The notes under the pieces are model-generated. The model was not told where the DNA came from. It did not search any database and worked only from the letters and a program-made list of their open reading frames with translations. A stretch of 64,000 nt of DNA from Candidatus Hydrothermarchaeum profundi (GTDB taxonomy: Archaea > Hydrothermarchaeota > Hydrothermarchaeia > Hydrothermarchaeales > Hydrothermarchaeaceae): positions 1,800,989 to 1,864,988 of the forward strand of contig MTMF02000009.1 of assembly GCA_002011125.2 (NCBI GenBank), written 5' to 3'. The first letter of the stretch is position 1, and every line of letters begins with the position of its first letter. This document shows, piece after piece, positions 39,425-49,564 of this stretch. Made by a program: the position numbers and the translations under genes.

Positions 39425-40426
39425 CTATAGCTTTCTTAAAATCAGCCCCCCTACAGCTGCGATAACAACAATACTTGCAACTATCAAGCCTATCACTCCA
39501 ACGGGTAAGCCCCCTTCAGAGACGGCTACGGGTTGCTCTGTGGGAGCAACCATCTGGATTTCCGACTGCATTCCTAGAGAAGCTTCAGCCAAGCTTATAT
39601 GCCTCCCAGCTTCCTCTATCTTTACCTTTGCATCCTTCTTATTACCTGCCAAAAGATCGTCTATAGCCGAGTTCAATGAGCTTTTCGCAGTATCGATGTG
39701 GGAGGAGATTTCTCCAACGTTCTCTCCTGCCTTCTCTTTAACATTAACCCTGTAAACCAGTTTCTCAATCTCTCCATCGTAATTTATAATATCTTTGAGC
39801 AAGGGTTCTATCTCAAACTCGGCCTTAATTTCCTGAGTAAAGGAAATCCCATCAAATATAGCTACAAAGTGGTCTTCAAAGCCGCTGACACCCTGCCAAA
39901 GTTCTCTCCAAGGAGTAGGCTTATAACCCGAAGGGATATACCCTACAGGTACATGCAACCTCACGATTCCTCCTACAGATCCCAGCTCAACATTTTTGCC
40001 CCCCTCGAGTATAGCCTCTGGTTTTCCAAATTTCACTGATGTGCTATACCCTGTGTCTGTCCTACTTAATAACCCCATTGCTTTAAACCTAAACCTCACG
40101 ATTCCTTTAGCACCGGGGTCTACAGGATCTATTAGGCTAACTTTAACATAGGGTAGTCCAGACTCCTCAGAGATAGAAATCTCTTTTACATTTTTTTTGG
40201 AAAACTCTTCATCGCTTTCAATCAGATCAAGTGCAGAGGCAGAGAAAGGCATTTTAAGCCCCACTACTTTCTCTTCAAACCCGTTAGCTATAGAAAGATC
40301 CAGCTCAACTACCGCATCAGGTATTTTATAGCTAACTGAGGCTTGCCATCTGTCAACGCTTACAGAGCCCTGAGCCGCGACAACCGGGAAAAACAAGAAC
40401 AAAGCCAAAAAAAACAAAAACCTCAC
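39425..40426 (-). CDS. Membrane-anchored surface protein, copy A (signal peptide, beta-rich domain, helical bundle, C-terminal TM)
   Basis: Signal peptide MRFLFFLALFLFFPVVAA; C-terminal TM with RKL; paralogue of 41034-42065. Confidence 0.75.
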   Translation of the reverse strand: MRFLFFLALFLFFPVVAAQGSVSVDRWQASVSYKIPDAVVELDLSIANGFEEKVVGLKMPFSASALDLIESDEEFSKKNVKEISISEESGLPYVKVSLIDPVDPGAKGIVRFRFKAMGLLSRTDTGYSTSVKFGKPEAILEGGKNVELGSVGGIVRLHVPVGYIPSGYKPTPWRELWQGVSGFEDHFVAIFDGISFTQEIKAEFEIEPLLKDIINYDGEIEKLVYRVNVKEKAGENVGEISSHIDTAKSSLNSAIDDLLAGNKKDAKVKIEEAGRHISLAEASLGMQSEIQMVAPTEQPVAVSEGGLPVGVIGLIVASIVVIAAVGGLILRKL

Positions 40427-41034
40427 TCCCCCACCCCCCTCAACAACTCCTCAACATTAGCCATAGTAGGCTGATGAATCCTGCCAACACTACCAACATG
40501 ACAGCTACCGCAAGAACCAGACCCCTTAACAACATGGATCTCAATATAATTACCATCAAAATGACACTGCTCACAAACCAAGAGATCCCCCGGCCTCACA
40601 GAAGGAATAGTCACACCCCCGGCCTCACTAAAACTATGACAATCCGTACAATCCAAAAGCCCCTTATCCAAACGAGCCTCATGAATCCTATGAATAGAAA
40701 CCCCATGACAAGTCGTACAAACCTTAGGAGTCCTATTCCTAAGAGAATCCAGCTTAGTGATATCCCTCACATTATGAAAGCCCTCAACCCTACCATGACA
40801 ATCCGGACAAGAAATAGACAACCCAGAAGCCTCAGCAGACTTCTCCACCACGGGAGCAACACCCCCGGCCTCAGACCTAGCCCTCTCCAACTCAGACAAA
40901 TAATACTGAACAGTCTTATCCAAAACCTGGCCATAATAAACCGAAGCCCCCGCATAAGTAATCACGGCGCTCAAGCCCATCATCACCAACAAGACAACAA
41001 CAACACCAAACGTCCTCACAGCCACCATCTCCAT
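40423..41034 (-). CDS. Membrane-anchored pentaheme c-type cytochrome, copy A
   Basis: Five CxxCH (CPDCH, CTTCH, CTDCH, CEQCH, CGSCH), additional His, N-terminal TM. Confidence 0.88.
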   Translation of the reverse strand: MEMVAVRTFGVVVVLLVMMGLSAVITYAGASVYYGQVLDKTVQYYLSELERARSEAGGVAPVVEKSAEASGLSISCPDCHGRVEGFHNVRDITKLDSLRNRTPKVCTTCHGVSIHRIHEARLDKGLLDCTDCHSFSEAGGVTIPSVRPGDLLVCEQCHFDGNYIEIHVVKGSGSCGSCHVGSVGRIHQPTMANVEELLRGVGE

Positions 41035-42065
41035 TAATCCTCTTTTCTTTCACCACCTTCTTCTTTTCCTATTAATCTTATTACAATGCCTCCTATAATT
41101 GAGAGAATTATTATACTTAATATAATGCCTGAGAAAATTAAATATTGTGGAATTACCTTTGTTTCTTTTTCAGCGGGTTCTTTGGTTTCTCCGCTTGGAA
41201 CTTCGGACTCTAATCCAAGGGAAACCTTAGCTATGGTTATATATCTGCGAGCAGCTTCCAATTCCACTTCGGCCTTTTCATTATTCCCCTGCACCAAGTT
41301 ATCTATGGATTCCCCGAGGGTAGTTTTTGCTCTATCAACATAGTTTTCCGCTACTACAACGTCTTCCCCAGCGCTTTTTCTAAAATTTATTTCATTAGTG
41401 AGCTTCTCTATTTCGCCATCAGCCTCTATTATATCATAAAGCTTGGGTTCCTCCCTAAATTTCACAATTATTTGTTGGGTTATAGTCACATCCTCAAATA
41501 TGGCTACAAAGTGGTCTTCAAAGCCGCTGACACCCTGCCAAAGTTCTCTCCAAGGCTCTGGCTCGTATTCAACAGGAAGCTGGCCTACTGGAAAGTGAAC
41601 TTTAATTGTTCCCGCACCTATCTGAACCGGAACTTTACTTCCATCCTCGAGTATAGCTGTTGGCTTAGAAAAACTCAGAGTAGTGGTGGAAATCCCGTTC
41701 GTTGTTCTGGTGAGTCCCTCTGTAGAGAACTTTAAAAAAATCTCTCTTGAAGCTCCTTTTTCAATAGGTCTACTGAATATTATTTCGAACTTCGATTTAT
41801 CATCTATGGCGGAGGATTTTACAGTAAAGGTCTCATTTTCAAATCTTTCCTCTTCGGGTATATAGTCTGCATACTTCGCATTAATAATAAGCTCTATACC
41901 AACAACCTTCATTTCCATGTTATTAGTTAATAGAAAATTGAAATCCAAATTTTCTTTCAAAAGATTATAAGAAACTGAGGCTTGCCATCTGTCAACGCTT
42001 ACAGAGCCCTGAGCCGCGACAACCGGGAAAAACAAGAACAAAGCCAAAAAAAACAAAAACCTCAC
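41034..42065 (-). CDS. Membrane-anchored surface protein, copy B
   Basis: Same signal peptide as copy A, shared PWRELWQGVSGFEDHFVAIF, C-terminal TM. Confidence 0.75.
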   Translation of the reverse strand: MRFLFFLALFLFFPVVAAQGSVSVDRWQASVSYNLLKENLDFNFLLTNNMEMKVVGIELIINAKYADYIPEEERFENETFTVKSSAIDDKSKFEIIFSRPIEKGASREIFLKFSTEGLTRTTNGISTTTLSFSKPTAILEDGSKVPVQIGAGTIKVHFPVGQLPVEYEPEPWRELWQGVSGFEDHFVAIFEDVTITQQIIVKFREEPKLYDIIEADGEIEKLTNEINFRKSAGEDVVVAENYVDRAKTTLGESIDNLVQGNNEKAEVELEAARRYITIAKVSLGLESEVPSGETKEPAEKETKVIPQYLIFSGIILSIIILSIIGGIVIRLIGKEEGGERKED

Positions 42066-42661
42066 TCCCCCACCCCCCTCAACAACTCCTCAACATTAGC
42101 CATAGTAGGCTGATGAATCCTGCCAACACTACCAACATGACAGCTACCGCAAGAACCAGACCCCTTAACAACATGGATCTCAATATAATTACCATCAAAA
42201 TGACACTGCTCACAAACCAAGAGATCCCCCGGCCTCACAGAAGGAATAGTCACACCCCCGGCCTCACTAAAACTATGACAATCCGTACAATCCAAAAGCC
42301 CCTTATCCAAACGAGCCTCATGAATCCTATGAATAGAAACCCCATGACAAGTCGTACAAACCTTAGGAGTCCTATTCCTAAGAGAATCCAGCTTAGTGAT
42401 ATCCCTCACATTATGAAAGCCCTCAACCCTACCATGACAATCCGGACAAGAAATAGACAACCCAGAAGCCTCAGCAGACTTCTCCACCACGGGAGCAACA
42501 CCCCCGGCCTCAGACCTAGCCCTCTCCAACTCAGACAAATAATACTGAACAGTCTTATCCAAAACCTGGCCATAATAAACCGAAGCCCCCGCATAAGTAA
42601 TCACGGCGCTCAAGCCCATCATCACCAACAAGACAACAACAACACCAAACGTCCTAGCCAT
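42062..42661 (-). CDS. Membrane-anchored pentaheme c-type cytochrome, copy B
   Basis: Five CxxCH; identical to copy A except the first residues; AGGAGAGG SD. Confidence 0.88.
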   Translation of the reverse strand: MARTFGVVVVLLVMMGLSAVITYAGASVYYGQVLDKTVQYYLSELERARSEAGGVAPVVEKSAEASGLSISCPDCHGRVEGFHNVRDITKLDSLRNRTPKVCTTCHGVSIHRIHEARLDKGLLDCTDCHSFSEAGGVTIPSVRPGDLLVCEQCHFDGNYIEIHVVKGSGSCGSCHVGSVGRIHQPTMANVEELLRGVGE

Positions 42662-43309: not shown

Positions 43310-44422
43310 ATTCAAACTTATCTAGATGAATGGATCGGTATTAGGACTAGAGAAGTAAAAGAGAAAGAAGAAATTTTCCGTGAGGCTAGGCCAGCGAGAC
43401 TTATAAAACTTGAGCCTGCGGGATTCCCTCTCAGAGACAGCAAAACCTATTCCATAAATATGGGGGATGAAAAGCTCTTCGAAATATATGCTAAGGAGCA
43501 GTGGATGGGCAACACTATCTCTGTCGGGGATTATCTCTTCGACCAGAGGATTATACCGGATTTTGCATTTAAAGTTATAAAAGTGATCCCAAGAGGCGAA
43601 GTCACGATAACAGAGGATACTAGGATACGATTGAAAGGTGACGAAAGAAGAGAAATTAAAGGCATACGATATACTTTCAGCGATATTGTAGGCCACTCAG
43701 AGGTAAAAAAGAAGTGCAAAATAATAATAAAATACCTACGGAATCCTAATACCTTTGGAGAATGGGCTCCTAAGAATGTCCTATTTTACGGGCCTCCAGG
43801 CACAGGCAAAACGATGACTGCTAAGGCTCTTGCTACTGAGACAGATTCCTCGCTTTATTTGATAAGAGCTACTGATCTCATAGGCGAATATGTAGGAGAC
43901 GGGGCGAAGAAAATCCATGAATTATTCAAAAAAGCATCATCTACCGCTCCTTCAGTTATATTTCTCGACGAGCTAGATGCAATCGGCTTAGATAGATCCT
44001 ATCAGGTCATACGAGGGGATGTCTCAGAAGTAGTAAATGCTTTGTTAACGGAGCTTGAGGGATTACATGAGAATAAAGGTGTGGTGACAATAGCAGCCAC
44101 GAATAACCCTGCAATTTTAGACTATGCTCTAAGGAGCAGGTTCGAAGAGGAGATGGAGTTTAAGCTACCGAATCCAAAAGAAAGACTTGAAATACTTAGG
44201 AAATATTCTAAAAAACTGCCGTTGAAGTTAGAAGCAGACATTAGAGAATATGTCGGAAAAACGGAGGGATTTTCTGGCAGGGATTTAAAGGAGAAACTTC
44301 TTAAAGCTGCGCTTCATCGAGCTATTTTGGAAGATTCCAACGTGATCACCCAAAAGCATCTTGAGGATGCTTTTAAAGCGGTGCCACCTAAATCTAGTCC
44401 TCCGAAAGAGATGTTTACATAA
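43310..44422 (+). CDS. AAA+ ATPase, archaeal COG1223/MJ1494 family (start uncertain: ATT 43310 or ATG 43460)
   Basis: YAKEQW, GDYLFD, WAPKNVLFYGPPGTGKT, FLDELD, ALRSRFEEE; conserved LEPAGFP lies upstream of the first ATG. Confidence 0.85.
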   Translation: MQTYLDEWIGIRTREVKEKEEIFREARPARLIKLEPAGFPLRDSKTYSINMGDEKLFEIYAKEQWMGNTISVGDYLFDQRIIPDFAFKVIKVIPRGEVTITEDTRIRLKGDERREIKGIRYTFSDIVGHSEVKKKCKIIIKYLRNPNTFGEWAPKNVLFYGPPGTGKTMTAKALATETDSSLYLIRATDLIGEYVGDGAKKIHELFKKASSTAPSVIFLDELDAIGLDRSYQVIRGDVSEVVNALLTELEGLHENKGVVTIAATNNPAILDYALRSRFEEEMEFKLPNPKERLEILRKYSKKLPLKLEADIREYVGKTEGFSGRDLKEKLLKAALHRAILEDSNVITQKHLEDAFKAVPPKSSPPKEMFT

Positions 44423-44855
44423 CTAGATTTACATCTTCCTTGAAACATTGAAAGACTATACTTGTTCTTATTTCACTTAGACCTCTGATGGCCGTTAATT
44501 TTTTCTCCACAATTTCTCTCAATGTGGCTGTATCCTTGGTCCTAATTTTTATTATAATGTCGTAGTCTCCAACCGTAGTATACACCTCAGATACATCATC
44601 TAATTTTGCAAGCTCCTCTGCAATTGAATTCGTCTTTCCTACCTCACATCTTATATTGATTAGTGCCGTTATGCCTTTTCCGTATGCATTTTGATCTACA
44701 AGTACTGTAAAGCTCCTTATAACCTTGTCTTCAAGCTTTTTTATCCTTTTATGCACAGCTACATCAGAGATCTTTACGCTTTTAGCGATATCTTTGTAAG
44801 GCATTCGAGAATTTTTTTTCAAAACCTCAAGGATTTTTTCATCAATTTCATCCAT
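44415..44855 (-). CDS. Lrp/AsnC transcriptional regulator
   Basis: DEIDEKIL..L..NSR...IA HTH; EVYTTVGDYDI RAM domain. Confidence 0.92.
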   Translation of the reverse strand: MDEIDEKILEVLKKNSRMPYKDIAKSVKISDVAVHKRIKKLEDKVIRSFTVLVDQNAYGKGITALINIRCEVGKTNSIAEELAKLDDVSEVYTTVGDYDIIIKIRTKDTATLREIVEKKLTAIRGLSEIRTSIVFQCFKEDVNLVM

Positions 44856-45054
44856 CCAAAACCTCCAAGTTAATCTTTCTAACCCAACCTAAGGATTTAT
44901 TTTTAACTAATATGATTAAGTTTGATTATCTATAAAAATATTTGCTATATGGTTAATAAATAAACTTCGAAACGTTTTTATATCTTTCTTCCTATTATTA
45001 CCTTAATAGTTTGAAGCTTATTTGTTCGAGAGTCTAAAAGTTGGTGGGTCGGTA

Positions 45055-47259
45055 ATGGCAGTAGCAAGGCGTGAAGTAAGGGTAGTAAAGGCATCTGGAG
45101 ATGTAGAGCCGTTCTCACCTAACGTAATAAAAAATGAGTGCATAGAAGCAGGAATTGAAGAGTTCACCGCTACAGAAGTTGCACTAGAAGTGGCAAAGCG
45201 CGTTTATGACGGAATATCTACTAGAGACATCCAACTGACTACACTAGAAATACTCTATGAGAAGGACCCGATAGCTGCTGACCGATATCATCGCTTTCAT
45301 AGTATGCATGTTAGGACTTCAAAGAACACTATTGAGGCTTTTGACAGGCGTAGGATAGTTTCCTCTTTAATCCTTGAAACAGGTCTACCTAAAGAATTGG
45401 CAGAACAAGTAGCGAGAGAGGCTGAGTCTGAGATAAGAAGGTTGAAGCTTGACTTCATATCAAGCCCCCTTATAAGGGAGATTGTGAATGTAAAACTCCT
45501 AGAGCACGGATTTGAAAAAGCTAGAGCCGACTACACAAGGTTAGGAATGCCTGTCTATGATGCTACTCAACTTATAAAAAGCTCGAATAACGGAAATTTA
45601 CAGAAAAACCCTGAAACTATACACAAGCTGATAGCAGATCAGGTATTTCGGGAGTACTCTCTTCTTAAGGTCCTTCCACTTCATCTAGCCGATGCCCATA
45701 TGCGTGGCGATATATATATCCACGATTTAGAGTACTTTCCAACCCGTCCCTATTGTGCTCACCATGATTTGAGATGGTTTCTGCGTAATGGATTAAAAAT
45801 TGAAGGTACCACTAACGTAGCAGGGCCTGCAAAAAAAGCCGAAGTAGCAATATTACATGCAGCTAAGGTTCTATTTGCCGCTCAGAGCAACTACTCAGGA
45901 TGCCAGGGAATGGACTTCCTCACTGTATGGCTCGCCCCGTATATCGAGGAATCAAGCTATGAAAGAATCAAACAGCTTGCACAGATGCTCATTTATGAGA
46001 TGTCACAAATCTACATAGGACGAGATGGCCAAAGTACCATAGGTATAGAATACGGTGTTCCAGAGATCTTACAGGACGTACCAGCGATTCTTCCTGGAGG
46101 GAGAACTAAAAATGGAATAACATATGGAGACTATGAAGAAGAAGCAAGACTTTTTGCAAAGGCACTAACAGAAGTTTATTTAGAGGGAGACTATTTCGGG
46201 AAACCTTTCCTACTGCCAAGACCAAACTATAAGTTGAGGAAAGAGAACCTGAACAAAGAAGGCTATGAGGATTTCATGATATTAGTGCACCGCGTAGCCG
46301 GCAAATTTGGCACCCCAAATTTCATAAACTTTCACGCAGAATATCTTTCTAATAGCATATTCACACAATACTATAGGTGGGCAGTCCAACACCGGGACGA
46401 CTTTGTTAATGGTTACTTACATGCAAGCATCCTTCAAGTAGTCACTATAAACCTGCCTAGAATATCATATGAGGCAGAAGGCGACTTAAGCAAATTCTAT
46501 GAGTTGTTAGACGAAAAACTGAGCTTAGCTAGGGAAGCCATAGAAATAAAAAGAGAAGTTATAAGGGAGAGGCTTAGGCAGAAACTACTACCGTTCCTAA
46601 GTCAGAAGACAGAAGATGGAAAGCCATATTTTAGACTCGAAGAAGTAGCACATGGTATAGGCTACGTCGGATTAAACGAGGCAGTACAAAGCATTACTGG
46701 CTCAGAAATGCATGAGAGTATTACTTCCTGGAATCTCGGATTGAAGCTAGTAAGATATATGTCCAAAACCACGAAAACCTGGAGCGAAGAATCCGGTCTA
46801 AGATGGGTGCTAACACAAGCTCCGGATATATCCACCGCAAATAGACTTGCGAAACTGGATTATGGGCAGTTTCCTGGGAAGGCTATAGTTAGAGGCGACT
46901 TGGATTCTGGAAGAATTTATTACACTGATTCCTCGCAAGTCAGGCCTGATGCAGATATATCCCTTCTTGATAGGCTTAAGTTAGAGGGAGCTTTTCATCC
47001 TATAGCGTCTGGGGGAATAATGTCTCAGGCTTCAGCCGATGAAAGTATAAACGAGGAAGATTTGTCAAAATTAACGGAGGAGATAATCTCGAAAACTCAC
47101 GTAGGATACTGGTACTATGTAAAGGATGTAACGCGTTGCAACGTTTGTGGTAAATTTTCCAGAGGATTAACAAACTACTGCCATGCTTGTGGATCAACAA
47201 CGGTAGAGCACTACTCTAATAAAATCGGATACTCCTCCCAGAATTATGAATTTAGGTGA
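45055..47259 (+). CDS. Class III (anaerobic) ribonucleotide reductase NrdD paralogue with two ATP-cones; catalytic motifs substituted
   Basis: Two ATP-cones, ADAHMRGDIYIHDLEY, TINLPR, GYVGLNE, C-terminal CxxC/CxxC; finger loop reads TQYYR. Confidence 0.85.
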   Translation: MAVARREVRVVKASGDVEPFSPNVIKNECIEAGIEEFTATEVALEVAKRVYDGISTRDIQLTTLEILYEKDPIAADRYHRFHSMHVRTSKNTIEAFDRRRIVSSLILETGLPKELAEQVAREAESEIRRLKLDFISSPLIREIVNVKLLEHGFEKARADYTRLGMPVYDATQLIKSSNNGNLQKNPETIHKLIADQVFREYSLLKVLPLHLADAHMRGDIYIHDLEYFPTRPYCAHHDLRWFLRNGLKIEGTTNVAGPAKKAEVAILHAAKVLFAAQSNYSGCQGMDFLTVWLAPYIEESSYERIKQLAQMLIYEMSQIYIGRDGQSTIGIEYGVPEILQDVPAILPGGRTKNGITYGDYEEEARLFAKALTEVYLEGDYFGKPFLLPRPNYKLRKENLNKEGYEDFMILVHRVAGKFGTPNFINFHAEYLSNSIFTQYYRWAVQHRDDFVNGYLHASILQVVTINLPRISYEAEGDLSKFYELLDEKLSLAREAIEIKREVIRERLRQKLLPFLSQKTEDGKPYFRLEEVAHGIGYVGLNEAVQSITGSEMHESITSWNLGLKLVRYMSKTTKTWSEESGLRWVLTQAPDISTANRLAKLDYGQFPGKAIVRGDLDSGRIYYTDSSQVRPDADISLLDRLKLEGAFHPIASGGIMSQASADESINEEDLSKLTEEIISKTHVGYWYYVKDVTRCNVCGKFSRGLTNYCHACGSTTVEHYSNKIGYSSQNYEFR

Positions 47260-47263
47260 ATCT

Positions 47264-47419
47264 ATGAGTGTAGAAGAAGAGATGCGGTATTCTGCTTATA
47301 AGCAGAGGCTTTTGGAGGAGATACTTCAGATCATAAAGATTAGCCGGCGAAGTCCATGTTTTGAAAACTTTACGAAAATAGATGTAGAACTAGAGAGGAA
47401 TGAAATATGGTTGAATTAG
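47264..47419 (+). CDS. Unannotated 51-aa protein directly downstream of the nrdD paralogue
   Basis: AGGTGA SD overlapping the upstream stop; MSVEEEMRYSAYKQRLLEEILQIIKISRRSPCFENFTKIDVELERNEIWLN. Confidence 0.55.
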   Translation: MSVEEEMRYSAYKQRLLEEILQIIKISRRSPCFENFTKIDVELERNEIWLN

Positions 47420-47463
47420 CCCTGCCAACTAAGTTAAAATATGCGGATAAGAGGGTGTGATAA

Positions 47464-47787
47464 GTGTTAGTAGACGTTGTACTGGACGTTAACATCCCTA
47501 AAAAAGTGAAAAAACTAAACAACGGCTATAGGACTCTGCATATAGGAGACATAGATACTCAGATGAAGGATGAAGAGATTCTTCACCTGACTCGTAAGTT
47601 AGGATGTATAATAGTGACTCATGATAGAGAACTAGCGATAAAAACATCCAAAAAAGGAAGAGTATTATTTATAAAAGAGAATTTACCTGCAGAGGACATT
47701 ATAAGATGTCTTGAGAAAAATGGAAGCTTGCTGAGAACGGCAAGCATTTTCTGCGAAAATGAAACCAAATGCAAAAACTGCAAATAG
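47464..47787 (+). CDS. PIN-like (DUF5615/Mut7-C) domain protein
   Basis: VLDVNIP, DEEIL, IIVTHDREL. Confidence 0.65.
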   Translation: MLVDVVLDVNIPKKVKKLNNGYRTLHIGDIDTQMKDEEILHLTRKLGCIIVTHDRELAIKTSKKGRVLFIKENLPAEDIIRCLEKNGSLLRTASIFCENETKCKNCK

Positions 47788-47919: not shown

Positions 47920-48897
47920 ATGAAGAAACTTGCACTTGTTCTACTGCTAGTTTTAACTGGTTGTATGAGTAGTCCCAAGTCGGAAATCACAAACTGGCCT
48001 AATGGCTATAAGGCGGCTGTATGCCCAACTTTTGAGGCTGAAACAGCTGGAGTAGAAGAGTTTAGAATCCTTACTAGAGCTTTAGGCACTACTAATGCTA
48101 CGTTTTTCATTGTAGCCGGGTATTATCAAGATGACCCGAGAGCTCTTTACCTTATAAGAGACTATGAAATCGCTAGTCTAGATTGGAATCAGAAAGAATG
48201 GAGAGAGTATTACGACTCAGAAGGCTTTCAAGAAGATAGCATTAGAAGGGCTCAGGAATGGTTCAGAAAAATTGGGTATAATCCAGCAGGATTCAGAGCC
48301 CCGTTGCTACTTAGTAATAGAGAAACTATCAAAGCTCTTGAAGTTCACGGCTATAAATACGACTCTTCTCAATATTTCGGGTTCCTCCCCTATACAATCA
48401 ACGGAGTAGTCGAGATACCTCTGTCTCTGAATTTTGACCCTTTGTGGAACAATGCATCACGCGAATATTCGCTATTACCTGTTCACCTAGTGTTTCAAAA
48501 AACGTATGATGAGGGGGGATTATTCACATTCACTTCACATGTATCCAAGGCAAGCCAAAATATAGAGGATTTGACCCGCCTTCTAGAGTTTATTAAATCT
48601 AGGAAAAGTGTTTGGATTGCCTCATGCAATGAGATAGCAGACTGGTGGCTGAAGAGAGAAAATCTAGAACTTAAAAGCGAGATGACTCTAATCACCGTAA
48701 AGAACAACAACAAAGAAAAAGTAGAAGGCATTACCATAAAAGTTAGCCCGAAGAAAGAAGTAATTGGAGCGGTTTCAACTTGGGAAGAGGGAGACTCAAC
48801 GTATGCCATATTGCCCCCTATTAATCCTGGGGAAGAAGTTGATTTGCAGATAGTTACCAATCCTTCCTTCCTCGAACGTCTCTTTTGGTGGGTATAA
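47920..48897 (+). CDS. Lipoprotein, polysaccharide deacetylase (NodB-like) fold
   Basis: Lipobox LTGC; WPNGYKAAV, ATFF, GFRAP, YDSS; metal-binding residues look degenerate. Confidence 0.7.
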   Translation: MKKLALVLLLVLTGCMSSPKSEITNWPNGYKAAVCPTFEAETAGVEEFRILTRALGTTNATFFIVAGYYQDDPRALYLIRDYEIASLDWNQKEWREYYDSEGFQEDSIRRAQEWFRKIGYNPAGFRAPLLLSNRETIKALEVHGYKYDSSQYFGFLPYTINGVVEIPLSLNFDPLWNNASREYSLLPVHLVFQKTYDEGGLFTFTSHVSKASQNIEDLTRLLEFIKSRKSVWIASCNEIADWWLKRENLELKSEMTLITVKNNNKEKVEGITIKVSPKKEVIGAVSTWEEGDSTYAILPPINPGEEVDLQIVTNPSFLERLFWWV

Positions 48898-49564
48898 AGG
48901 CTTTACTACTCCTAATCTTGTAAGGACAATCTTTGCCCTGTGGGCTATCTCTAACCTCGTTCTCTGGGCAGACGGACATTATTTTGCCTCTACATTCTAC
49001 ACTTTCGAAAATCTCTGGGTAAATTTTTACCACAATATCCCTAATCTTTTTGGCAAGCTCTCTAATTTCAGGAGAAGCCCTTACACAGAGGCGAAGACCA
49101 AGGAAATTAATCAAGCTTCGGGCATTTACCGTCCATACGTAATTAGTATGCACTGCCATAGGTAGGACATATCGTCTAGACTCCCTAGAAATCCCCATAT
49201 CTCTAAGCTCTACGTAGGTTTTAGAGAGCTCTCTCATAGCCTTCTTATAATTCTCCAAAGCTCTCTTATTCTTCAATATTTCAGTAGGTATATAGTAACC
49301 AAAGTCCTCTTCTTCTTGGTATCTTGTAGATCTTGCTGTATGAGACGCTATCCTGTGCTCCAGCAACTCCCTACTGAGAGCCACGCTTATTCCGGAAAGG
49401 TTGAAAGTGAAAGATATGTGCTCCAATGCACTTGAGTAGTCGTTCTCAACTATCATTCTAACTATCTCTTCATCGCTCATGCCTCCTGGGACACCACTCA
49501 CCCTAGCTGACTGGGCTACTAGCTCTATTCCTCCCTCGGTATATTTCAACAGCTCTACCTTCAT
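48854..49564 (-). CDS. thyX: Flavin-dependent thymidylate synthase
   Basis: SALEH, EHRIASHTARSTRY, N.RSL..F..LRLC.RA..EIR. Confidence 0.9.
   Translation of the reverse strand: MKVELLKYTEGGIELVAQSARVSGVPGGMSDEEIVRMIVENDYSSALEHISFTFNLSGISVALSRELLEHRIASHTARSTRYQEEEDFGYYIPTEILKNKRALENYKKAMRELSKTYVELRDMGISRESRRYVLPMAVHTNYVWTVNARSLINFLGLRLCVRASPEIRELAKKIRDIVVKIYPEIFESVECRGKIMSVCPENEVRDSPQGKDCPYKIRSSKAFIPTKRDVRGRKDW

Follow-up and report, generated by a model that had tools for sequence, protein, structure and literature searches.

The nrdD gene at positions 45055..47259 (forward strand, like all features below unless indicated) of a 64,000-nucleotide stretch of the Candidatus Hydrothermarchaeum profundi genome, here called the window (C9:1800989-1864988, contig MTMF02000009.1, in a 2.19-Mb assembly with a completeness of 97.65%), encodes an uninterrupted protein of 734 residues. 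This protein, here designated A-type, is a homolog of the NrdD3 type of class III ribonucleotide reductase (RNR) and is predicted from its sequence to be catalytically dead. The gene is probably an in-place descendant of a working NrdD3-type enzyme that now encodes a non-catalytic nucleotide-binding protein. Loss of catalysis is indicated by the absence of both Cys in the finger loop, together with the phosphate-loop Glu, the YYTN Asn, the radical-motif Arg and most of the tail. The genes nrdH and nrdG have been deleted from the operon, other reductases are available to supply the deoxyribonucleoside triphosphates (dNTPs), and the reading frame, both ATP-cones, the linker between cones and core and the specificity-site (s-site) helix are conserved much better than other parts. 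Given what ATP-cones are known to do (PMC11226230 and PMC12662201, in the portions available), the cones would bind ATP/dATP, and the protein would be kept for this reason. Its signal might be passed on to a working reductase or to the expression of the locus headed by an Lrp/AsnC regulator, in a genome without NrdR.

The frame is open from the ATG at 45055 to the stop at 47257-47259 and shows no frameshift. An alternative start, TTG at 45022, is possible; the starts of the orthologs coincide with the ATG. The gene shows no frameshift, internal stop or large truncation of the kind that defines a pseudogene: the 734 codons are open and the protein lacks only about 15 residues at the end of the canonical tail. 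Its GC content is typical for the genome. The product matches TIGR02487 with 431 bits (cut-off 326) and Pfam NRDD (PF13597) with an E-value of 5.5e-122 over residues 179-729. Two ATP-cones (PF03477), each above the Pfam cut-off of 25.8 bits on its own, precede this domain: cone 1 at about residues 8-82 (45076..45300; 29.9 bits), and cone 2 with the linker at about residues 83-165 (45301..45549; 34.5 bits). The AlphaFold2 (AF2) model, built from a 37-row alignment, shows a mean predicted local distance difference test (pLDDT) of 84.6 and a predicted template modelling score of 0.78. The secondary structure of its cones, a beta-hairpin and four helices in cone 1, is consistent with the beta-hairpin plus four-helix fold. 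Confidence is low at the flap (residues 170-190), the finger loop (431-450, with pLDDT of 59-64 at TQYYR) and the last 11 residues (below 50 at 724-734) only. In the Foldseek comparison with the PDB, the first 35 ranked matches are all class III RNR chains and the top ones include 9d3x, 8p2c, 1hk8 and 4coj; the closest solved structures found with HMMER are the NrdDs of S. thermophilus (9d3x), P. copri (8p23), T. maritima and phage T4. We infer that the protein retains an NrdD-like barrel fold together with its two cones.

The elements on which radical chemistry depends are changed. The finger loop reads TQYYR (residues 437-441; 46363..46377), in which Tyr439 and Tyr440, encoded by TAC TAT at 46369-46374, replace both Cys of QCCR. 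In the HMMER alignments these residues stand opposite the CC of the orthologs and the radical Cys of 9d3x, and in the family profile, compared with 8p23 and 4coi, the Tyr pair falls in the QCC column. No other Cys is found within residues 431-446. The sister genus has TGC TGC codons, from which two G>A changes give TAC TAT. In place of QCCR/A, the finger loop that the available part of PMC9669993 assigns to the redoxin-dependent NrdD3 type, the protein thus shows QYYR, with Gln and Arg kept. The substrate-phosphate loop TPAES is replaced by APDIS (T589A, A591D, E592I; 46819..46833), which aligns with ATPAE of the P. copri NrdD, where the phosphates of the substrate sit in loop 577-581 and Glu581 makes a bridge to the substrate (PMC11226230, part seen). 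YYTNSSH is replaced by YYTDSSQ (N625D, H628Q; 46918..46938), position 625 being Glu in the strain of metagenomic run X3, and GGMM(A)H by GGIM (M655I, followed by H658Q; 47011..47022). The remnant of the glycyl-radical loop is SNKIGY (47215-47232), followed by eight residues and the stop (feature 47215..47259): the Arg is lost, Gly725 and Tyr726 are kept, and the R-x-x-G-Y motif with its tail reads N-K-I-G-Y with eight residues after the radical Gly versus 23 in the orthologs, about 15 fewer. The other frames beyond the stop showed no remnant of the tail or of nrdG. At the corresponding positions, the closest working relatives have QCCR, TPAES, YYTNSS, GGMMAH and SRITGYYQ..GWN.GK.

Several structural and nucleotide-related elements are retained. 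The Zn ribbon keeps its four Cys (C695, C698, C709 and C712; 47137..47193), and the strand-A Cys, Cys234 in RPYCAHH (45754..45756), is kept, a residue lost in most older dead forms. The structural barrel motifs HDLR, NLPR..Y and RLAKLD are also present. The NxN substrate flap, which like loop 2 is defined for NrdD in the accessible text of PMC11226230, reads N-G-N (45589..45597; canonical ENAN in the profile alignment to P. copri NrdD), with both Asn kept and E178N and A180G changed. The base-reading column of the s-site is kept as E315, opposite Asn298 of P. copri NrdD, and the helix that contains it (residues 300-318) is unchanged at the invariant columns. Loop 2 (46012..46047), which aligns with loop 2 of P. 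copri NrdD, is three residues shorter: canonical ARGGQTVFSDIDI versus GRDGQ---STIGI. Mapping of the S. thermophilus s-site Gln225 by pairwise alignment gave Lys271 in working and dead forms alike and is therefore uninformative. An earlier note on this DNA, made from the letters alone, had described a full-length frame without frameshift, with two ATP-cones and a Zn site, the altered motifs TQYYR, APDIS, YYTDSSQ, GGIM and SNKIGY with a short tail, and no adjacent nrdG. The Pfam and TIGR02487 matches and the four Zn Cys agree with this description, every motif lies where it had been placed, and the next conserved gene begins only 204 nt after the stop. Its reading that radical chemistry was lost with the fold preserved also holds, given the motif alignments, the Tyr opposite the radical Cys of the solved NrdDs, the pLDDT of the model and Foldseek matches that are all NrdD. 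The absence of the residues needed for class III radical chemistry, with the fold apparently kept, is thus supported by alignment and by the predicted structure.

The protein search covered 5.8 billion proteins (clusters) and 120 matches were listed. The closest proteins have 761 residues, are 61-67% identical and are canonical (AQCCRL, TPAES, YYTNSS, SRITGYYQ..GWN.GK), and the nearest nine database matches are all QCCR proteins, which indicates descent from the NrdD3 clade. Among the 120 matches listed, 33 lack a Cys in the Tyr440 column, 35 lack R-x-x-G-Y/F near the end and 32 lack both. Working NrdD3 proteins share with the window protein the fold, the domain order (ATP-cones, barrel, Zn ribbon, Gly loop) and the locus; the window protein differs from them in QYYR instead of QCCR, APDIS instead of TPAES, YYTD instead of YYTN, the short tail and the deletion of nrdH and nrdG. 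The best PDB matches, the NrdDs of P. copri (8p23 and others) and S. thermophilus (9d3x and others), share the NxN flap and the s-site column. They are only ~20% identical, active, of the single-Cys MGCR formate type and with one cone, in contrast to the window protein, which lacks the finger-loop Cys and has a shortened loop 2 and s-site hairpin. Judged by sequence, the window protein belongs to the NrdD3 lineage by descent and stands outside the enzyme family by function.

The genomic context agrees with this descent. The window and the sister genus (G001, G002 and G003) share the gene order DUF4416, AAA ATPase, Lrp/AsnC (divergent), nrdD, DUF5615, deacetylase-like, ThyX and Hel308. Between nrdD and DUF5615, both G001 and G003 carry nrdG and an nrdH-like gene; in the window these are replaced by a gap of 204 nt (47260..47463), which contains no nrdG. 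This synteny with a working operon makes the window protein a positional ortholog of the working enzyme, its operon partners having been deleted in place. The locus is closed by a gene encoding a DUF5615/Mut7-C-like protein of 107 residues (Pfam; 47464..47787), with orthologs in 19 of 36 loci, next to live and dead copies alike. This PIN-like gene is placed after nrdG in live operons and directly after nrdD in dead ones. On the other side lies the divergent gene of an Lrp/AsnC-family regulator (44415..44855, reverse strand; Pfam HTH_AsnC and AsnC_trans_reg). Its orthologs (54-71% identical) are found across the order, in 26 of the 36 loci, beside the A-type gene or heading a whole RNR cluster, and the protein is a candidate regulator of the RNR locus in genomes without NrdR. 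The complex prediction for the dead NrdD (alignment A1) with the Lrp/AsnC protein (A2) gave a score of 0.01, compared with a mark of 0.32, a result that speaks neither for nor against binding. As read from the sequence, the shared intergenic region (44856..45054) contains a putative TATA-like element, TTTTTATATC, ~70-80 nt before the ATG, and a GGTGG just before it.

The genome contains other reductases. A second NrdD (C9:129.6-131.7 kb), 36% identical and with ECCR, TPAES and YYTNST, is followed by a thioredoxin-fold gene (nrdH) and nrdG, and lies 1.7 Mb from the dead copy. The NrdG of this operon is the sole one above the cut-off in the genome (215.8 bits). A class II RNR (NrdJ) with its own ATP-cone (86-90 bits) is encoded 4 kb beyond the operon. 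The earlier note had proposed to look for such a second nrdD with nrdG, or nrdJ, and both are thus present. With the split nrdD-nrdH-nrdG operon and the class II RNR available, the dead copy is dispensable for dNTP synthesis. A role of the dead copy in lending cones to a cone-less class II RNR is ruled out here by the cone of NrdJ itself. No match to NrdR (TIGR00244) is found in the 97.65%-complete genome. The working NrdD is itself split (minus strand, about 1329-3435 of L001, G000:C9:128263-132867): a chain of 646 residues stops once the first CxxC of the Zn ribbon has been passed, and is followed by a strong Shine-Dalgarno-like AAGGAGGTGA and a separate open reading frame of 49 residues containing the second CxxC, the glycyl-radical motif RVTGF and the tail. 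NrdD is split likewise in G009 and G022, and every match to this NrdD type in the relatives ends at that point. No published split NrdD was found in the literature, including the accessible portions of PMC13450708 and PMC9669993. A stand-alone ATP-cone match (40.6 bits) is located in an open frame of 95 residues away from the RNR genes (G000:C9:222120-222323, plus strand).

The changes in the window protein are unevenly distributed. The 32 working relatives share 330 invariant columns, and the window protein departs from them at 86. Cone 2 keeps all 26 of its invariant columns (Fisher p = 3.4e-4) and cone 1 keeps all 23 columns invariant in the 13 two-cone working relatives, so that 49/49 columns are kept in the cones versus 86/304 changed elsewhere; the finger-loop block keeps 3/14 and the C-terminus 13/24. 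When the sister gene was subjected to simulated random substitution, 0/300 frames were open at 26% residue change, the level observed in the window protein, one at 15%, five at 10% and 32 at 5%; the simulation was restricted to substitutions, leaving out indels, which makes it a lenient test. An independent metagenome (run X3) contains a ~98% identical copy, covered over 1045 nt in four pieces that include YYT(D/E)SS, the Zn ribbon, SNKIGY and the stop, and show no indels. It shows 19 differences, 14 of them listed: seven synonymous and seven non-synonymous, giving a ratio of non-synonymous to synonymous polymorphism (pN/pS) of 0.28 (binomial test against the neutral proportion, p = 0.0196). 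The exact sequence is also present in runs X1 and X2, which are possibly its source; the pieces from run X4 are short conserved stretches of other organisms (three of four less than 90% alike, with loose ends) and were not used.

These data bear on the main alternative, which we consider doubtful: that the gene is a young relic which, once its lineage had acquired or retained other reductases, lost nrdH and nrdG and is heading to a pseudogene without function, its frame being open by luck or recency. The lineage-specific substitutions, with canonical nearest orthologs, would fit such a relic, as would a branch ~3 times faster than its sisters, the premature stop of the tail relative to the relatives, differences at formerly invariant sites between two ~98% identical strains, and the frequent loss of catalysis at the locus (at least four changes on the tree). 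Untouched cones beside an altered core, the lack of open frames among neutral copies at the observed change and the pN/pS (p = 0.02) without an indel in the second strain argue against it, and so does the purifying selection on older dead copies at the same locus. Ratios of non-synonymous to synonymous substitution (dN/dS) between dead copies are 0.06-0.10 among G026, G031 and G032, 0.21 for G009/G017, 0.15 for G006/G014, 0.11-0.17 among G004, G021 and G024, 0.25 for G013/G030, 0.27 for G012/G020 and 0.20 for G028/G033, versus 0.036-0.038 for working pairs. The dead copies elsewhere in the order are therefore clearly constrained. They also keep 25-26 of the 26 cone-2 columns in 17 of the 18 dead forms tabulated (the remaining one, G002, is a fragment without cone 2), whereas core conservation in those 17 falls to 40-55%.

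Other observations weigh against a retained nucleotide-binding function in the window lineage itself. The lineage has evolved ~3 times faster than its working sisters (dN 0.25-0.33 vs 0.075-0.10), and two of the seven replacements relative to X3 affect formerly invariant sites (V272 and A532), at which X3 retains the canonical residue; with a fast branch and ongoing changes at invariant sites, relaxation is real and may be continuing. The X3 comparison comprises 14 differences at a contig depth of 2.4-3.9, its coverage does not reach the finger loop, and APDIS lies near a contig end, where one unlisted difference could fall. No ortholog above 67% identity is found among the 5.8 billion proteins, and synonymous sites are saturated against every relative (pS 0.84-0.93), which precludes a full-length dN/dS for the lineage. 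RNA runs are absent from the sequencing runs listed as holding the gene. A distance of 1.7 Mb separates the dead gene from the working RNR genes. Three residues are missing from the s-site hairpin and three from loop 2, which leaves the cones alone clearly intact. In addition, the cone hairpins read K-A-S-G and R-T-S-K versus K-R-D-G; in solved cones the hairpin Lys and Arg contact phosphates (PMC12662201, available part), so nucleotide binding is not assured. The working orthologs share both hairpins, which have consequently no bearing on the loss of catalysis.

The earlier note had also expected orthologs to share the substitutions, and this did not hold: the nearest ones are canonical, so the particular substitutions are specific to the window lineage. 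Its check on selection and strain decay came out in part, as the gene is shared, in the parts that can be compared, by the ~98% identical strain, with pN/pS below the neutral expectation, and no deeper ortholog shares the substitutions. The interpretation as a repurposed protein keeps its basis in a fold preserved without chemistry in a gene that is not freely decaying, and loses the support of shared substitutions.

It is improbable that the gene is kept for a reason other than sensing, as a scaffold or partner, or for the transcription or translation of the downstream DUF5615 gene. The proximity of DUF5615 to live and dead reductases alike, in 19 of 36 loci, and the structural motifs retained in the barrel are compatible with such a role, but constraint is greatest in the two cones and the linker and not at the 3' end beside DUF5615, and mere read-through would not need an open frame of 2.2 kb. 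That the protein is still an enzyme, using the remaining Gly with another residue (a Tyr radical or Cys234) and an NrdG acting in trans, is very improbable: the protein retains Gly725-Tyr726, Cys234, the NxN flap and the Zn ribbon with its four Cys, one NrdG is encoded in the genome, and non-glycine radical enzymes are known in the pyruvate formate-lyase-like branch (PMC11528403, in part), but those enzymes keep the Cys, whereas here both finger-loop Cys, the phosphate loop, YYTN, the radical-motif Arg and most of the Gly-loop tail are lost, nrdH and nrdG are deleted from the operon, and in other lineages the finger loop and the complete C-terminal domain have disappeared at the same locus. 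The Tyr-based alternative chemistry, already held less likely in the earlier note, found no support.

The loss of catalysis recurs across the order. The survey included 41 related genomes, 35 of them belonging to the order; these genomes are kin, and for this reason counts are given and no statistical test was applied. Canonical A-type copies are found in seven of the 35 genomes of the order (G001, G003, G005, G008, G010, G016 and G025) and dead copies in 24; in four the copy is absent, fragmentary or undecided. All seven canonical copies have nrdG just downstream and six have a detectable nrdH-like gene. A second NrdD-family match is present in none of the seven genomes with a canonical copy versus 19 of the 24 with a dead copy. 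In the remaining five dead-copy genomes no other NrdD and no NrdG were found; four of them encode a class II RNR and the fifth is only 57% complete. The dead copy is located directly beside nrdJ or within an RNR cluster in at least eight genomes, and in several families nrdJ or the whole nrdD/nrdH/nrdJ/nrdG set lies between the Lrp gene and the dead copy (G006, G007, G009, G011, G014, G015, G019 and G022). In other lineages the same locus encodes a protein that has lost the finger loop and the entire C-terminal domain.

Two further gene types accompany dead copies. One family shows a diverged NrdG-like radical S-adenosylmethionine gene directly 3' of the dead A-type copy (L065 8430-9200, L069 5183-5890 and L070 5426-6112 in G026, G031 and G032; also G028, G033, G013 and G030). 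These genes are 23-32% identical to working NrdG and reach 124-131 bits versus a cut-off of 131; a normal NrdG is encoded elsewhere in the genomes. A third NrdD type, in a frame of 761 residues and 28-29% identical to both other types (L046 1910-4192, G006; G014:C157), has its own nrdG and shares a cluster with nrdJ and the dead A-type copy.

The live or dead state changes at least four times on a tree of 57 rows. The four losses are those of a large 'deep dead' clade, of G002 and P0011 inside the sister genus, of G012 and G020 next to a canonical protein, and of P0064. In this quick tree the window protein joins the 'deep dead' clade, of 25 further rows, at its base (Shimodaira-Hasegawa-like approximate likelihood ratio test, SH-aLRT, 98). 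In a careful tree of 32 rows, which leaves out the fastest or partial rows of the 57, that branch has an ultrafast bootstrap of 61 and an SH-aLRT of 94. A clade of the window protein with the working genes of its own family is not rejected (approximately unbiased test p = 0.126, difference in log-likelihood 12.3). The loss in the window protein may therefore have been an independent event, the fifth, or the window protein may represent the earliest stage of the large dead clade that still survives. Among the relatives, the window copy is the least degraded dead form and an early stage of a change repeated in the order. The TGC TGC codons of the finger loop became TAC TAT here, GGC GGC in G012 and AGC TGT in G002. 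Among these three lineages (the window, L052 and L042), the same type of base change hit both Cys codons twice, here and in G012; such paired identical changes may hint at selection to remove both thiols.

We tentatively propose, as a possibility, that the A-type NrdD of the order has a second, cone-dependent job, the sensing of ATP/dATP to control dNTP supply, which could act on the working reductases or together with the Lrp/AsnC regulator. A job of this kind would account for the survival of the gene through at least four independent losses of chemistry. If this is true, the window would show the earliest stage of an enzyme becoming a pure sensor, in organisms without NrdR.

NrdR is a bacterial Zn-ribbon and ATP-cone repressor of RNR genes of about 150 residues. 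If the sensor reading of the window protein is right, the two would be functionally analogous, as non-reductase ATP-cone proteins linked to RNR genes; the window protein differs in being a 734-residue barrel without the N-terminal DNA-binding Zn ribbon. Yeast Rnr4 is an inactive class I small-subunit paralog that pairs with the active Rnr2. By analogy, the window protein could likewise be a dead RNR paralog kept beside a working one for a non-catalytic role, although subunit and class are different, Rnr4 is eukaryotic, and the heterodimer is shown for Rnr4, whereas one formed by the window protein would be hypothetical. No published description of Cys-less NrdD homologs was found in a literature search that included the accessible parts of PMC4390871, PMC9531940, PMC9669993, PMC11528403 and PMC13450708, their supplements, whose sequence filters could bear on this, lying outside it. 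Databases name such proteins 'anaerobic ribonucleoside-triphosphate reductase', so metabolic reconstructions would credit these archaea with an enzyme that they lack. If the favored reading is correct, a dead reductase retaining only its ATP/dATP modules would represent a new form of dNTP-pool sensing in archaea, in which no NrdR-type regulator was found. With working positional orthologs and only ~26% of the critical residues changed, the window protein is a natural starting point for mapping the parts of NrdD that serve a non-catalytic role.

Two other regions of the window deserve mention. A gene encoding a ThyX-type thymidylate synthase (48854-49564, reverse strand) is found two genes beyond the dead nrdD, and its position is the same in the sister genus. 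Upstream, the region 39425-42661 (reverse strand) shows a two-gene unit in tandem duplicate, encoding a protein of ~200 residues with five CxxCH motifs (multihaem cytochrome-like) and a secreted protein of ~335 residues; the two cytochrome-like copies are nearly identical.

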